Virus record (IMG/VR): IMGVR_UViG_3300044837_000097
Coordinates: 18,716-82,715 of that record
Strand: one strand, 5' to 3'
From: a virus
Length of the DNA: 64,000 nt
This document shows positions 1,221-18,925 of this stretch, in pieces. Within the stretch, counting starts at the first letter, position 1, and each line of letters starts with the position of its first letter. The translations under genes and the position numbers were made by a program. The notes below the pieces were generated by a model. The model ran no database searches. It saw nothing but the letters and a program-made list of their open reading frames with translations, and was not told where the DNA came from.

Positions 1221-2513
1221 ATGAGTTCAATCACTCGCGAGCAGGTCTTGGCTATCAAGACATTTGCCGAAGTTGCAAAGCTGTTGAAGGAAAGTCCGGA
1301 CGAGATGCGCCCGATTATGAAGGGTGAAGTTCTAGTCCACATCCAGTCGCTCATCAATGCGCGCAACGTGCAGCTTGCTGGGCAGGAGACCGAGGTTGAC
1401 CGCCAACTGGCGTTGAACAACCCTCCTTCGACGGAAGAGTTGGCCGAGCAAGCCGCAGCCGTGGCAGCAGAGTCTGCCGCTGTTGTGCCGCCTGTCGTCG
1501 AGGCGACGCCGCCAGCCACAGTTGACCACACCGAGGAAGACGCGTCGTGGAAGACCGAAGGCGTGACCGTGCAGCGTGATGCGCAAGGCAAGATTGTTCG
1601 CATGGTCCAAGAGTATCAGGTTCGTGATGATGACGACTCTCCGATTGGTCGTCCGACGCACCTTGAGGCCCGTACGCCGTACGAGTTGCTCTCGAAGCAG
1701 CGCGTGGCTCACGAGAACGCGACCCGTGCGTTCCACCGCTTGAAGAAGCAGAAGTTGACCTTTAAGCAGACCGAAGAAAATCGTTTGCTGACTCCCGCCG
1801 AGATTAGTGCGGCAGCAACCAAGGCACTCGAAGGCAAAGACGCCGCCGAGGCCGAGAAGATTGTACGCAGCGTGCTTGAGAACGACTTCAAGCAGAAGGA
1901 AACCGCGCTGCTAAATGAACGCGAATACGCGGAAGGACAGAAGATTGGAAACACCTTCATCCGCCGCCACTTGCACGACTTCAATGCGAACGAAGCAAAC
2001 TTGAAGGCGCTTGGTGAGTATCTTCGCGAGCATAACATGGAATTTACGTTGGACAACTTGGAGGCCGCATTCATCGACCTCCGAGACCAAGGTAATAAAC
2101 TCGCCGCCGTTAACGCGGCGGTAACAAGACCAGCGGAGTCGGCTAATACCCCGGCAACCGCGACTCCCGCAGCAGCGCCAACGTCGGAACTCCCGGCGAC
2201 GGCACCGGCAGCGGCAGTGACACCACCAGTAGTAGCCCAACCAGCGGCTGCCGTAAGCCAGCCAGTAGTTGAAGCAACGGTATCTACGCCTGTCGCGCCG
2301 AATCCGGCACCAGCGACCCGTAGACCGGGAGTGAACGGGAGCATTACTCCGGGAACGATGAGCGCACATCGTCCGGGAGCAGTGGACCCGGCGCTCGCGC
2401 GCAAAGAGTTTATGAAGGAACTCAAGGCCATGACATCGGACCAAATTCGCAAGAAGCTAAACGACTCTCAGTTCGTGAAGCAGCTTGAGACGTACGGCGT
2501 CAAGGTTCGCTAA
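1221..2513 (+). CDS. Capsid scaffolding protein (putative)
   Basis: Coiled-coil plus Ala/Pro-rich linkers, immediately upstream of the capsid gene. ATG 1221 follows AGGTGG; GTG 1212 is an alternative start. Confidence 0.6.
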   Translation: MSSITREQVLAIKTFAEVAKLLKESPDEMRPIMKGEVLVHIQSLINARNVQLAGQETEVDRQLALNNPPSTEELAEQAAAVAAESAAVVPPVVEATPPATVDHTEEDASWKTEGVTVQRDAQGKIVRMVQEYQVRDDDDSPIGRPTHLEARTPYELLSKQRVAHENATRAFHRLKKQKLTFKQTEENRLLTPAEISAAATKALEGKDAAEAEKIVRSVLENDFKQKETALLNEREYAEGQKIGNTFIRRHLHDFNANEANLKALGEYLREHNMEFTLDNLEAAFIDLRDQGNKLAAVNAAVTRPAESANTPATATPAAAPTSELPATAPAAAVTPPVVAQPAAAVSQPVVEATVSTPVAPNPAPATRRPGVNGSITPGTMSAHRPGAVDPALARKEFMKELKAMTSDQIRKKLNDSQFVKQLETYGVKVR

Positions 2514-2556
2514 AACCCTCTCCCGCAAACGCGGAGATTAGCTTGCAGAGTGAACT

Positions 2557-5500
2557 ATGTCTGGACCAAATCCAGCAGCATCAAACGTAGCAAACGTCCT
2601 AACGGCGCAAGCCATCATCAAAAAGGTGACACTCTAAAACAACTTGACTGAAAGAGTCAAATGTGCTAGAATAGACAATCTCTTCTTATTGACTTGAAAC
2701 CTGAAACGGCAACAAGGCGGAAGCCGAAAGGCACCGTGAGAGACTAAGCGAAGAGACGCCGAAAGGCGATGCGATAGTCCGTTCTTCCGAGAAAACAATC
2801 GGAAGAAGCAAGCAGAAATGACTTGCTCTCTGGAATACACCAGAGTAACAAAACAGCTTCGACAAGGAACTTATCCCTATCGCGTAAGCGAGCAAGTTCC
2901 GAAGGAATGACATGAAGGTACGAAACATCGTTGGACAGACTTTTGGGAGACTGGCCGCCCAGAGTGCCGCAGGCAGTAACAGCAGGGGGCGAGCACTGTG
3001 GTTGTGTCGTTGTTCTTGTGGCAAAGAGAAAATAGTTCTCGGAGACCACTTAACACGAAAGGATGCCAAAGGCGTAAGGTCTTGCGGATGTTTACAGCAA
3101 GAGAATCGTACAAAGCATGGAGCATTTTCTTCAAATTCAGATATAAAATACCACGTTCGTTATTCTCTTCTGGCAGGCTTGAAGGACAGAAGCCGCAGAA
3201 GGGGCTACGAATCAGACTTAGAAATCTCCGACATACCCGAGATTCCTGAGCTTTGTCCCGTTCTTGGGACTCGTTTGAGTTTGCACCGAAACAGCCACGG
3301 CAAAGGAAAAGGCAGAGGCAGAAATAGACAAGACGCCTCTCCATCAATAGACAGATTTAATTCAAATCTTCCGTACCTTAAAAAGTACAAAGATAATCTG
3401 TGTATTATTTCGTGGCGAGCAAACAAGCTAAAGTCAGACGCGTCTCTTGTCGAGATGAAGAAAGTGGTGGAATATCTTGAAAATTGGGGCACTCAGCAGA
3501 GTGAAAAATCTTCTCTAATTGACTCGAAACCCAACCAAATCGGGGGCAACGAGGCGGAAGCGAATAGCGCCGTGAGAGACTAATCGAGAAGACGCCGAGA
3601 GGCGATGTAATAGTCCGGTCTAACAAATGAAAATTGTTAGAGGCAGGCGGAAACGACCAGTCCCGTGATGGGCGTCACGGTAACATATACGAACCTAAAG
3701 GGTAATACAAACGCCTTCGTTGGAGCAGCAGAGCGTCGTGTTCAGGGCCTTCACATGGGCATCAACCGTACGTTCTTCCAGTACAACACGCTATCGGGTG
3801 ACATCACCCAGAAGGCGGACGGTACTGTAGGCTCGCCGGAAACCATCACCCAGTTGAGCGCACCCGCTCAAATCGGTGAGTGGAAAAACTAAGTTATTCC
3901 ACTATAAACTCAGCTATATCAAATTAGGTCTTGACAAACCGCAAAGGCTCTTGTTAAGATGAGTTTGAGGAAACTCTAAATGGAAAAGAAAGCGTGGCCG
4001 TATGTGGCCGGATTGCTAGATGCAGAAGGGACAATCCAGATTGGCGTCGATAGAAGGCCAGACGGCGTAATCGGGATGTCGCTTCAAATTATCATCACTA
4101 ATACCGACACTCGACTGATGAAGTGGCTTAGTTCAAACTTCGGGGGGAAGTTCTACCGAAGGAAGAACACTCGCGGCTTTTCATCGAGCGAGTCTCCCGA
4201 TATTTACTTTTGGTGGCTTTTCGGTAAAGAAAAACAAGAAGCATTTCTTCTCGGTATCCTTCCTTTTCTCAAAACAAAGAAACAAGAGGCCCTTCTGGGT
4301 CTTGAGTTTGTTCGTTTGGTCGGGTGGAATAAAGAAAGAAAACTTCAAATAGCGGAAGAAATGAAAGCCGCTAAGGTTAGTGATGTAGAGAAAGATAGGC
4401 AAGTTAATCTGACAAGGCTTACCCCCGCAGAAGACTCGGCATACGCCGCAGGGCTTTTTGATGGGGATGGTTCAATCGGCTCAAGCGTAGAGATTACTCA
4501 AAAGAGGATTCTTCTGATGAGGTGGCTCTTGATGTGCTTTGGCGGAAGGTTTAACCAACGCAGCATGAACGGCGGTAAAACTTTTTTCAGGTGGCGTCTC
4601 TCAGGAAAGAAAAACAAAGAGTTGTTTCTTCTTGATTTGATTCCTCATCTTGTTATTAAACGGGACAGTGCAAGAGCATTGCTCGCTTCTCTTAGAGCAT
4701 CAAAGAGTTCCGCAACGACTGACATGTTGAGTACTTCGCAAGAAGTGAAGACACAGTCTGAACTTACTGGTGACAGTAAGAGCGACCCTGTGAAGACACA
4801 GGACTCCATAAACAAAAAGTAACTTCGCGAACTTTTCGTCGTTCGCAATTGCAGCAGCAATTGACGAACTCGTTGGCAACAGCGCCGTGGAACTTGGCTA
4901 CCAAGCTGGGCAGTCCATCAGCGAGTTGTACAGCGCAGTAGCAGACAGCGCCAACTCGGTTGACTCACAGGTTAACCAGTCATCGTTGCTTGCATCTCCG
5001 TACACGCTTGACCTTGGCACCATCCGTGAGTTGAAGCAGCAGCTTGTTTCAAAGAACGTGTTGCCGTGCAAGCGCGGTATGTTCTTGGGCGCAATTAGCC
5101 CGAACGTGTTGGGCGACATTTACAATGCAACGACTGTGAACAACAGCATCGTTGACTTGTGGAAGTACGAGAACATGGAGAAGTACGACCAGATGGCAGG
5201 TTCGGACCAGAACAAGGTCATCGTGTTGCCGGGTACCAACATCGGCTTCATGCAGACCCCGTTCGTGACCACGACTGCTAACTACCAGTCAACAGGCAAA
5301 ATTGGCTACCGCACATACGTGTTCGGTAACTACGCCATGATTGGTGTGTGGTTGCAGGTACCGGGCGACACCGACCTTGACGACGGTGACTGGAAGACGA
5401 TTGACTGCCGCGTCGTAACCGACGCGCCGATGTCATCGTTTGACCCAGTTTCGACGATTGGCGGATGGTGTTCGTACAAATTTCATCAAACCGTTACGTT

Positions 5501-5567
5501 GCCACCGGCAACGGGAACAAACACGCAGCGTATCCGCTACGTAGATTCGGTTCCGGCCATTCAGTAA
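2557..5567 (+). CDS. Major capsid protein (N4-gp56-like), spliced: join(2557..2618,2857..2878,3692..3885,4820..5567), 341 aa
   Basis: 62+22+194+748=1026 nt forms one open frame: MSGPNPAASNVANVLTAQAII-FDKELIP-NLKGNTNAF...QIGEWN-NFANFSSFAIAAAID...DPVSTIGGWCSYKF...IQ. Follows the scaffold gene. Confidence 0.88.
2619..2856 (+). ncRNA. Group I intron 1 of the capsid gene (ORF-less, 238 nt)
   Basis: P1 UCAUC/GGUGA with U2618.G2626; P3 2679-85/2750-56; P7 GACUA 2742-46/UAGUC 2775-79; P8 CGCC-GAAA-GGCG; terminal G2856. Confidence 0.9.
2644..2672 (+). promoter_or_regulatory. Sigma70-type promoter inside intron 1
   Basis: TTGACT, 17-nt spacer, TAGAAT, with extended -10 TG. Confidence 0.6.
2879..3691 (+). 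ncRNA. Group I intron 2 of the capsid gene (813 nt, endonuclease ORF in the P1 loop)
   Basis: Exon end CCCU pairs with distal IGS GGGG 3486-89 (U2878.G3486); P3 3509-15/3586-92; P7 GACUA 3578-82/UAGUC 3611-15; terminal G3691. Core is very similar to intron 1. Confidence 0.88.
2912..3583 (+). CDS. Intron-encoded HNH-type homing endonuclease
   Basis: N-terminal GQTFGRL...WLCRCSCG...SCGC module; C-terminal CPVLG...SIDR...NLCIISWRANKLK. Its stop codon lies in P7. Confidence 0.8.
   Translation: MKVRNIVGQTFGRLAAQSAAGSNSRGRALWLCRCSCGKEKIVLGDHLTRKDAKGVRSCGCLQQENRTKHGAFSSNSDIKYHVRYSLLAGLKDRSRRRGYESDLEISDIPEIPELCPVLGTRLSLHRNSHGKGKGRGRNRQDASPSIDRFNSNLPYLKKYKDNLCIISWRANKLKSDASLVEMKKVVEYLENWGTQQSEKSSLIDSKPNQIGGNEAEANSAVRD
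3886..4819 (+). ncRNA. Group I intron 3 of the capsid gene (934 nt, ORF starts in the P6 loop)
   Basis: IGS AAGUUAUUCCACU 3891-3903 is complementary to the ligated exons; P3 3908-14/4726-32; P7 GACUG 4717-21/CAGUC 4754-58; P8 ACUUC-GCAA-GAAGU; terminal G4819. Confidence 0.85.
3931..3960 (+). promoter_or_regulatory. Sigma70-type promoter in P5 of intron 3, upstream of the LAGLIDADG ORF
   Basis: TTGACA, 18-nt spacer, TAAGAT with extended TG; SD GAGG 3967-70; ATG 3980. Confidence 0.6.
3980..4822 (+). CDS. Intron-encoded double-motif LAGLIDADG homing endonuclease
   Basis: Motifs YVAGLLDAEG and YAAGLFDGDG; AT-rich. Reads through the ribozyme core and its TAA is the first three bases of exon 4. 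Confidence 0.9.
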   Translation: MEKKAWPYVAGLLDAEGTIQIGVDRRPDGVIGMSLQIIITNTDTRLMKWLSSNFGGKFYRRKNTRGFSSSESPDIYFWWLFGKEKQEAFLLGILPFLKTKKQEALLGLEFVRLVGWNKERKLQIAEEMKAAKVSDVEKDRQVNLTRLTPAEDSAYAAGLFDGDGSIGSSVEITQKRILLMRWLLMCFGGRFNQRSMNGGKTFFRWRLSGKKNKELFLLDLIPHLVIKRDSARALLASLRASKSSATTDMLSTSQEVKTQSELTGDSKSDPVKTQDSINKK

Positions 5568-5666
5568 CTAAATAGTTACTATGACGAACTTCCCACGGGC
5601 TTATAATCCGTGGCTTACTAATCAGGGGGAGCCTCGAACTCCCCCAGATTATCTTTCGAGGAGATT

Positions 5667-6095
5667 ATGTCAGAAGCAACAAGAGCAGCAAGTCGTCGTT
5701 ATTATCAAAAGAATAAGGAAGCAGAAAAGATTCGTTCGAAGAAATGGCGTCAAGACAACCCAGAAAAATATAAAGAATGGGCAGAGAAGAATAAAGAAAA
5801 ACGACGTGCTGCCAGTCGTCGATATGAATACAATATCACACCAGAAGAGTATGAACGAAAGAAAGCAGAACAAGGAAACAAATGTGCTATTTGCCGACAG
5901 GAAACTAATTTGCTTGTAGTAGACCATAATCATCTGTGTTGTCCATCGAGAAAAAGCCGAGCAGGATATAAAACTTGTGGCAGATGTAATCGTGGCCTCT
6001 TATGTCGTTCATGTAATACAGCAATCGGATTGTTCAAAGAATCGGAGCAAGTCCTCAGCAGCGCAATCCAATATCTCAAAGGATACCAACAATGA
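5667..6095 (+). CDS. Free-standing endonuclease VII-family homing endonuclease
   Basis: CAIC...VDHNH...RGLLCRSCNTAIG; basic N-terminus; AT-rich. Confidence 0.85.
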   Translation: MSEATRAASRRYYQKNKEAEKIRSKKWRQDNPEKYKEWAEKNKEKRRAASRRYEYNITPEEYERKKAEQGNKCAICRQETNLLVVDHNHLCCPSRKSRAGYKTCGRCNRGLLCRSCNTAIGLFKESEQVLSSAIQYLKGYQQ

Positions 6096-17156: not shown

Positions 17157-18925
17157 TGCCTGATAACCCGTACTTGACAAGCGAAGAAGAAGTTCCGAGT
17201 AATTGGTCTCCGGTTGAAACCGAGACGATGGGGCCGGGAAAATCTCCTGCGCCCCCTATTCCGCACGCGATGCCCCAGTATTTCTCCGGCTCGATGCCGC
17301 CTGCGCTGCAACACGATACATCATTTGTGAGCACGGAGGTGGGGAGTCCCCGCATCCCGAAGACATCGCTTATGCCACTGGGCTTGCAGCTTAGTTCTAT
17401 CACCAGCGCGGCGATTCAAAGCACTGCTACGAACATTGCACAGATAACGCCGGGTCCGAGCGGCGGTGGCGGTGGTGGAATCTCTAGCATCACTTTGAAT
17501 ATTCCAAATATTTTTACCCCTACTACTCAAACGAAAACGACAGACCCCGTAGTGTTGGCATTTACTCTGGCAACGGAACTTCCGGGAACTTATCTCGGCG
17601 TTCCAAGCGGCGCGGGATTAGGCGCACTGGAAGCATTTAACGTCGTAAGCAATCTAACGGGCGCTGGCGGGTCGGCCACGGTAACGGTAACGAGCACGCC
17701 AAGCACGGCGACATCGTGGGCGCTTCTACCCGTCGTTACAAAAAATGGATACGCCGGGGCGGGATTAGGCGCGTGGACCGGGATAACTGGAAACGACGGG
17801 CTTAAAGGCACGTTCATCAAAAATATAACCGGAACTTCCCCGGTTTCTGTTTCAGAGCCGCTCATCGCCAACGATACAGCGACCTTGGCTTTAGCTATTT
17901 TTTCCGGGCCTCTGCCTACTATAGTTCAGCAGAATACGGCGTCGTCGTGGACCGGGCAAACCATGTCCAAGGCTTACGGAAGTAGCAACACTGCGGGAAA
18001 CACATTATTCATTATTTTTCAATACACGCTTTCTTCCACCGCCTTTGGTGTGTCCGCTTCCGACACAGCCGGAAACTCCTACGTAACCTTGGCTTCTACC
18101 TTTGGAGGAAGCACGGCAATCGGAGCCACAGCCCAATTGATTATGATTGCTCCTGCCTGCTTGGGCGGTGCTAACACCGTCAACGTAAAAGTAACGGGAG
18201 GCAGCGGAGCAACCCCGGCAGGTCTGCTTCAAATTTTTGAAATTGCTCCGATAGCCGCAGGCGCGGGTGTCCCTTTTTTCCACCCTCTTTTCCCGGGAGA
18301 TATTCCACCCATCAATTTGAGTTCAGTTGGTAACGGCGGAATACAAAACATCCTTGGTTTAGCAAACGGGGGCACTAAATCCGATTTGTCCGGTACCGGA
18401 GGGCCAAGCCAATTCATATCTCAACTGAGTGCGGGGGCGGCTCTCAGCCCGACACAGCCGGATTTTGGTGACTTGGCCGGATTAAACAAAGCAATTAAGT
18501 ACAACAACATCGCGCTTGTAGGCGTGGGTTTGCCGTCCCTGATTGCTCTAGTAGACCGTACCGCACAAACGGCGGCTATTACCACAACCAATCTGCTAGC
18601 TTCGGTACCAACTACAGGGCAATACAGGCTGTCATGGAACGCGAAGGTTACAACGCCGGACGGGGCTAGTTCGACGTTAGGTGCTTTGACAATCACGTAT
18701 ACAGATGCCGACAACACGGTTCAAACCATCACAGCGGCAGCACAGAGCAAGAACGGAGTAATTGAAACTTCCGACACGGGAAACTCGACTACGGCGGTTT
18801 TACTCGGCGTCCCTATGATGTTAAACGCGCGTTCCGCTACAGCTATCCAATACGCTATGGCGTACGCCTCGGGCACGCCAGCGACGATGGCCTACAACCT
18901 TCATATAAAATTGGAGTCTTTGTAA
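17156..18925 (+). CDS. Tail fibre/spike protein
   Basis: 589 aa, Thr/Ser/Gly-rich, L-x-x-A-NGGT motif. Confidence 0.6.
   Translation: MPDNPYLTSEEEVPSNWSPVETETMGPGKSPAPPIPHAMPQYFSGSMPPALQHDTSFVSTEVGSPRIPKTSLMPLGLQLSSITSAAIQSTATNIAQITPGPSGGGGGGISSITLNIPNIFTPTTQTKTTDPVVLAFTLATELPGTYLGVPSGAGLGALEAFNVVSNLTGAGGSATVTVTSTPSTATSWALLPVVTKNGYAGAGLGAWTGITGNDGLKGTFIKNITGTSPVSVSEPLIANDTATLALAIFSGPLPTIVQQNTASSWTGQTMSKAYGSSNTAGNTLFIIFQYTLSSTAFGVSASDTAGNSYVTLASTFGGSTAIGATAQLIMIAPACLGGANTVNVKVTGGSGATPAGLLQIFEIAPIAAGAGVPFFHPLFPGDIPPINLSSVGNGGIQNILGLANGGTKSDLSGTGGPSQFISQLSAGAALSPTQPDFGDLAGLNKAIKYNNIALVGVGLPSLIALVDRTAQTAAITTTNLLASVPTTGQYRLSWNAKVTTPDGASSTLGALTITYTDADNTVQTITAAAQSKNGVIETSDTGNSTTAVLLGVPMMLNARSATAIQYAMAYASGTPATMAYNLHIKLESL

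Follow-up and report, generated by a model that had tools for sequence, protein, structure and literature searches.

A capsid-gene group I intron of an uncultured phage with a predicted A-U pair in place of the U.G wobble at its 5′ splice site

For group I introns, a nearly universal U.G wobble located at the 5′ splice site counts as the signal that defines where cleavage takes place. Phage genes, for example td and nrdB of T4, are known to contain mobile group I introns that encode homing endonucleases, and capsid-gene introns reportedly exist in Cluster J mycobacteriophages. A C at position −1 was reportedly described by Hur and Waring in 1995 for mitochondrial introns of Aspergillus nidulans, under a title that is said to present the base as held by selection at the protein level. 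A 23S intron of Coxiella burnetii reportedly lacks the terminal G. The present work concerns intron 3, the third one in an uncultured phage's major capsid gene. The gene lies in a stretch of 64,000 nucleotides (the window; positions 18,716 to 82,715) of the 82.7-kb IMG/VR virus record IMGVR_UViG_3300044837_000097, whose estimated completeness is 81%. The intron is probably spliced after an A that is paired with a U of the guide.

According to Tourasse et al. 2014 (PMC4227781), the 5′ exon of thousands of group I introns ends almost without exception in U, or in rare cases in C. The same paper reports that group B IStrons, such as BcISt1 of Bacillus cereus, splice after G, as found by reverse transcription PCR and sequencing. 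These elements keep a U-G pair that is shifted by one, with the U as the first intron base and an internal loop behind it (PMC4227781). A C at −1 is given for one type of tRNA intron in a preprint (Williams 2020, bioRxiv 10.1101/2020.01.27.920355). Full-text literature searches found no report of an A at −1 without any U.G; their coverage was partial, so that this is no proof of absence.

The capsid gene of the window begins with the ATG at 2557, 3′ of the portal and scaffold genes, and is interrupted by three introns (Table 1). Joining its four exons gives 341 codons and a stop, and the product is identical to the uninterrupted homologue P0001 at 314/341 residues with zero gaps. The preceding exon base of intron 3 is A3885 and its terminal base is G4819. 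Exon 3 ends with ...GEW(AA) and exon 4 starts with (T)AAC TTC; the intron thus splits the codon of the invariant Asn-93 between its second and third bases. The motif GEWN[ND][YF] is present in 116/120 capsid homologues; the remaining four are P0009, P0086, and P0114, which are truncated or have a different start, and P0020. In uninterrupted alleles, the site reads TGGAAY in 61/61 cases (58 AAC and 3 AAT). Every pair of 5′ and 3′ sites within ±15 nucleotides (nt) was scanned, which gave 150 in-frame pairs. A3885 with T4820 was the sole pair having both the full-length GEWNNF motif and a terminal G. The proposed ligated exons read ...GAGTGGAA-TAACTTCG..., and, under this reading, A3885 would have to be joined to U4820 in ligation.

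The 13-nt guide AAGUUAUUCCACU is the exact reverse complement of AGTGGAA plus TAACTT and forms a 7-bp P1 and a 6-bp P10. It occurs once in the window, even when one mismatch is allowed (chance expectation, 0.08). A minimum-energy fold of positions 3872 to 3979 yields P1 with seven Watson-Crick pairs and zero G.U pairs, in which A3885 at −1 pairs with U3897. In common with other group I introns, the element has a guide complementary to the 5′ exon end, a terminal G, and a predicted P10 with the 3′ exon; the place of the U.G is taken by A3885-U3897. An earlier note on this DNA had claimed the exact 13-nt complementarity, the A3885-U3897 pair in a P1 without U.G, and an exon 3 that the reading frame forces to end at A3885. 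All of these were confirmed, and its coordinates were correct on direct reading (AGTGGAA at 3879-3885, AAGTTATTCCACT at 3891-3903, G at 4819, and TAACTT at 4820-4825).

Is this arrangement found in other introns? Contigs from viruses, metagenomes, and genomes were searched for relatives at the same site, with proteins as guides and with sequence patterns. Nine further introns are inserted at TGG AA^Y, where ^ marks the insertion point (L001, L002, L003, L004, L023, L126, L122, L125, and L235). With the window included, an A at −1 pairs with the U that opens UUCCACU or UUUCACU in 10/10 same-site introns. The contig of L004 is cut before the 3′ end of the intron, and the terminal base is G in 9/9 introns that reach it. 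Their ligated exons all translate to GEWNN[YF]. The earlier note had asked for P1 and P10 to be compared among homologous introns; the P10 guide changes with the 3′ exon (exon/guide, UAACUU/AAGUUA in the window, UAACUAC/GUAGUUA in L122, CAAUUA/UAAUUG in L235, and CAA/UUG in the others). At +1, a purine always faces a purine (A/A, A/G, or G/A), never U.G. The LAGLIDADG proteins of these introns are, where reported, 71-82% identical to that of the window, and the full-length LAGLIDADG open reading frame (ORF) is kept in all 10 introns where the contig allows. These comparisons rule out a sequencing error and show selection on the arrangement. The earlier note had called a single sequencing error unlikely, and the nine contigs put this on firmer ground; U.G in the register of the window, which it had named as a finding in all homologues that would speak against it, is present in none of the 10.

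A 15-base degenerate pattern of the 5′ junction matched at least 114 stretches in viral contigs, almost all by chance. After BLAST filtering, the relevant matches were L023, L050, L069, and L095 only. L235 lies on the 36.7-kb contig CABMCB010000038.1, which is filed under "uncultured archaeon isolate LFW-28". Its capsid gene suggests that it is a phage contig binned with the archaeon genome.

The same ribozyme with related LAGLIDADG genes was also found at other sites of the capsid gene. L131 is inserted 4 nt upstream of the window site (GAA U^GG AAU) and L133 at Tyr-120. In both, the seventh P1 pair is U.G and the P1 loop is 10 nt long (11 nt in the window), while the distance from the guide to the UAUAUCA box is 11 nt in L131, L133, and the window alike. 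L136, L145, and L148 also have 7-bp P1 helices ending with U.G, as read from their sequences. Because the U.G of L131 and L133 is the seventh P1 pair with equal spacing to UAUAUCA, the A-U pair of the window is predicted to occupy the wobble's own position in an unshifted register. The earlier note had inferred an intron displaced by one base upstream from the canonical register; this was not borne out.

As a control, junctions were inferred by the same method for 26 capsid loci of viral contigs that bear introns. A junction with U at −1 and a terminal G was found at 21/26 loci, corresponding to 15 distinct introns at about six sites. The loci without a solution were L174 and L185 (two introns and a micro-exon), L224 and L226 (overlapping matches), and L218 (no equal-length solution). 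Since the control loci give U and G, the A at −1 belongs specifically to this site and was not generated by the method. The counts exclude the junctions of L135, L136 (3′ end), and L140/L141. L140/L141 (~1390-1440) have a related intron after residue ~52, in which, at the best guide pairing, the U at −1 apparently lies opposite a U.

L131 (1403/2433; the same as L119, L121, and L132) and L133 (1394/2322; the same as L134) have a canonical U.G at the 5′ site and an apparent terminal A (..AAUCA^GGAAU and ..CAUUUA^AUCAGG, respectively). These 3′ junctions are proposed because a contiguous P10 of 5-6 bp and the conserved Trp-92 and Tyr-120 require them. Alternatives ending with G delete or alter conserved residues; one for L131 gives GEYNNY and has no U.G. 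The insertion points of the L131 type and the window type are exactly 4 nt apart (T^GGAA^Y; window 3881-3885). Since the cleavage stagger of LAGLIDADG enzymes is typically 4 nt, the two intron lineages may target the same capsid sequence.

The group I identity of intron 3, proposed in the earlier note, gained support from covariation. Across nine aligned family members, 98% of the cells in P7, P8, P9, and P9.1 are paired, changes on both sides were seen in 14/23 pairs, and 0/500 shuffles were equally good. Controls in which the alignment was slid pair at ≤42%. This count covers the four helices named; P3, P4, and P6 were read from the alignment by hand, and compensatory changes in P3 and P6 were seen by eye. 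With core helices from P3 to P9 supported in this way, the element is, as judged from its predicted structure, a group I intron. P7.1/P7.2 hairpins are missing from intron 3 because only 4 nt lie between the 5′ strand of P7 and the 3′ strand of P3. P2 is optional in this intron family. A search for a second copy of the 3′ half of the ribozyme in the phage's own genome found none.

The best explanation is probably that intron 3 is a mobile group I intron spliced after A3885, with A-U in place of the U.G wobble. The homing endonuclease would fix the insertion point inside the Asn codon (AAY). Because endonuclease-driven homing would have fixed the insertion there, the base at −1 must be A. The ribozyme may then find its cut site via the geometry of the helix rather than via a wobble pair. 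This geometry would be that of a P1 with a fixed length of 7 bp and an unvarying spacing from the core, bounded at +1 by a mismatch of two purines, and the 3′ exon would be aligned by the contiguous P10 guide. Cleavage is probably slower, intrinsically, than in the U.G relatives, and help from a protein is possible. A wider proposal, which is tentative and should be regarded as doubtful, is that this LAGLIDADG-bearing family picks both splice sites by geometry and guide pairing instead of by the "universal" nucleotides, the A-U lineage of 10 members exemplifying the 5′ site and the apparent terminal A of L131 and L133 the 3′ site.

Several points weigh against splicing after A3885 by a group I ribozyme. 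The junction was derived from protein homology and pairing; among sequencing runs, no RNA source of the stretch was found, and only two DNA runs matched, with 0.05-0.08 of the words sampled. Five consecutive A's at 3884-3888 lie opposite U's and permit slipped registers. In a study on the Anabaena intron, no circular RNA was formed after T-G had been swapped to G-T at the guide's first position, and according to its authors Y is required at the 5′ site (PMC12355055). As an engineered purine at −1 inactivates the Anabaena intron, a wobble-free site is expected to be poor. It follows that the present scaffold may be unusually tolerant or helped by a protein. In solved group I structures, the wobble receptor lies at the strands joining P4 and P5. 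These strands do not differ by type of pair: AGGU/AUG is shared by the window (A-U) and L133 (U.G), and AC/C by the L001-like introns (A-U) and L131 (U.G). Thus, no co-adaptation that would explain the acceptance of A-U is visible there. Finally, the Rfam model Intron_gpI (RF00028) has no match at its gathering score over the whole window. In E-value mode, it aligns to 4679-4780 with 24.2 bits against the gathering score of 50 (E 0.0068), covering J8/7, the 3′ strand of P7, and P9. The core is divided by the 843-nt ORF, a gap that the model is unable to span, and this explains the low score.

Among the alternatives, it is possible, though rather unlikely, that the junction is as proposed and that the wobble-free site needs a LAGLIDADG maturase or a factor of the host or phage for cleavage. 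The retention of the full-length ORF in the same-site introns is consistent with this, and so is the inactivity of a −1 purine in the Anabaena system (PMC12355055). However, both LAGLIDADG motifs look intact for DNA cleavage, suggesting an active endonuclease. In addition, known LAGLIDADG maturases stabilize the folded core and are not known to select splice sites. It is less probable that A3885 is unpaired from U3897 in the active state, a slipped A-run or the mismatch at +1 mimicking the geometry of the wobble. The five consecutive A's face UU-A-UU of the guide and the +1 position always has purine opposite purine, as such a mimic might need, but the intron of L122 begins with GGAA instead of AAAC, hence the A-run is not conserved, and every member pairs best in the 7-bp register.

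A junction shifted into the intron is very improbable. The direct repeat AACU (3887-3890 and 4821-4824) permits a product of the same length that reads Trp-Lys-Asn (GEWKNF), the 5′ site moving to A3886-U3890 and the 3′ site to U4820-U4824, positions that the repeat renders equivalent (d5=+5, d3=+5 in one version, which has a U at −1). Such an intron would end with U, A, or C and not with G, the guide has no G able to face U3890, and Lys would replace the Asn found in 116/116 matched homologues. The base that follows the terminal G, which is U or C, changes in step with the guide and forms a P10 pair with it. Cryptic canonical sites are slightly less credible still. In the window, four in-frame pairs within the scanned range have U at −1 and a terminal G, for example U3881/G4827, yet their capsid proteins are 1-6 residues shorter than the homologues, with residues of the invariant GEWNN block deleted, no guide forms the U.G, and none of the four pairs recurs across all five introns scanned. 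An artefact of sequencing or assembly or a dead phage genome, which might be suspected in a metagenomic virus contig that is ~81% complete, can practically be dismissed because the feature occurs in nine other contigs with compensatory helix changes. The ±15-nt scan and the comparative data thus led to the rejection of three readings: a sequencing error, the cryptic canonical sites, and the junction with Trp-Lys-Asn.

The translation of the intron ORF contains two LAGLIDADG motifs, VAGLLDAEG and AAGLFDGDG, and also matches PF14528 (22.5 bits at a cut-off of 22.5). The ORF passes through P6′, P7, P8, P9, and P9.1, and its stop codon TAA is made of the first three bases of exon 4. Its Shine-Dalgarno sequence, GAGGA, overlaps the 5′ strand of P6 (window 3967-3980); core folding would thus hide it.

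In the protein search, the nearest named relative of the capsid protein, and the only named match, came from Tunturiibacter phage Tunturi_3 (major head protein, 37.8% identity). P0001 weakly matches PHROG 1357 (major head protein). Over 100 uninterrupted homologues of ~341 residues were found in metagenomes. A megablast search of 2400-5700 against phage records gave zero matches. No second, uninterrupted capsid gene was found in the phage's own genome. Outside the window, a weak capsid-like match was seen at G000:C1:809-1033 (37% identity to P0001 residues 75-152, E 8.8e-8) with one TAG inside. Introns 1 and 2 have near-identical core boxes (2717-2781 and 3555-3620). Capsid genes form a hot spot for introns in this clade of phages (viral contigs L155-L234); 53/80 loci are uninterrupted and 26 bear introns, which are mostly ORF-less, 201-240 nt long, and located near residues 21, 30, 308, 311, and 315-316.

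Table 1. Capsid exons, introns, and predicted elements of intron 3 (window coordinates)
Feature	Position	Strand	Detail	Basis
Capsid exon 1	2557-2618			
Intron 1	2619-2856		238 nt; U at −1, terminal G	
Capsid exon 2	2857-2878		22-nt micro-exon	
Intron 2	2879-3691		813 nt; HNH ORF 2912-3583; U at −1, terminal G	
Capsid exon 3	3692-3885	+	final codon split AA^T	joined-exon identity to P0001
P1, 5′ strand	3879-3885	+	AGUGGAA, last 7 exon bases; A3885 is −1	direct reading, fold
Group I intron 3	3886-4819	+	934 nt	weak Rfam match, covariation, joined exons
P10 portion of guide	3891-3896	+	AAGUUA, with 4820-4825	covariation with 3′ exon in relatives
P1, 3′ strand of guide	3897-3903	+	UUCCACU; U3897 with A3885	fold, pairing comparison
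P3, 5′ strand	3908-3914	+	with 4726-4732	alignment reading; compensatory changes in L001, L133
P4, 5′ strand	3920-3925	+	with 3962-3967	hand-derived
P5 and P5a	3928-3960	+	P5 3928-3937/3951-3960; P5a 3939-3940/3946-3947	minimum-energy fold
P6, 5′ strand	3969-3977	+	with 4704-4711; ORF in P6 loop	alignment; L001 and others covary (GGAAACCUU/AAGGUUCC)
LAGLIDADG homing endonuclease ORF	3980-4822	+	280 aa	PF00961 (LAGLIDADG_1), 30.2 bits, cut-off 23.1
P6, 3′ strand	4704-4711	+		alignment reading
P7	4717-4758	+	4717-4721/4754-4758, enclosing P3 3′ strand 4726-4732 and P8	fold, covariation
P8	4733-4737/4742-4746	+	GCAA loop	fold, covariation
J8/7	4747-4753	+		
P9 hairpin	4763-4780	+	GUGA loop	fold, covariation
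P9.1 hairpin	4787-4802	+		fold, covariation
Terminal G (omega G)	4819	+		kept in 9/9 same-site introns reaching the 3′ end
Capsid exon 4	4820-5567	+	4820-4825 is the P10 target	homologue comparison, joined exons

The wobble rule is built into annotation tools, which look for U at −1 and a terminal G, and into the design of trans-splicing ribozymes and of circular RNAs from permuted introns. A conserved natural family that splices accurately after A would show that the wobble is dispensable in some scaffolds, and the host gene here is the phage's most highly expressed essential gene. The family would serve as a natural test of how group I ribozymes choose their cut site, and the sister introns with U.G on the same scaffold provide matched pairs for measuring what the wobble is worth. 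It would also exemplify how a ribozyme may be driven off its consensus by endonuclease-mediated homing into one fixed codon. If selection by geometry is true, this would be a natural group I ribozyme cutting after a purine, and the target range of trans-splicing and circular-RNA ribozymes might be widened beyond sites after U or C.

How does this intron compare with the known systems? It shares with canonical phage introns the P1-P10 guide, the P3-P9 core, the terminal G, an endonuclease ORF in a peripheral loop, and a conserved essential gene as host. In contrast, the canonical ones follow a U that forms U.G, whereas intron 3 has A-U and no P7.1/P7.2. The Coxiella intron bears on L131 and L133 with their apparent terminal A, although the likeness concerns the 3′ end only and its host is an rRNA gene. 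The introns with C at −1 are also cases of natural wobble loss, and an exon base held by protein-level selection resembles the logic of the Asn codon. However, they have a pyrimidine in the exon and a G in the guide, while here a purine in the exon faces a U. The group B IStrons (PMC4227781) likewise have a group I ribozyme, a 5′ exon ending in a purine, and a splice-site pairing followed by an internal loop. There, the −1 base is G and the shifted U-G is kept with its U at +1, and the ribozymes are of the IA2 type with IS200/IS605 or IS607 genes at the 3′ end of the intron. In intron 3, the purine at −1 is A, +1 has purine opposite purine without any U.G, and the sole ORF is a LAGLIDADG gene in P6.

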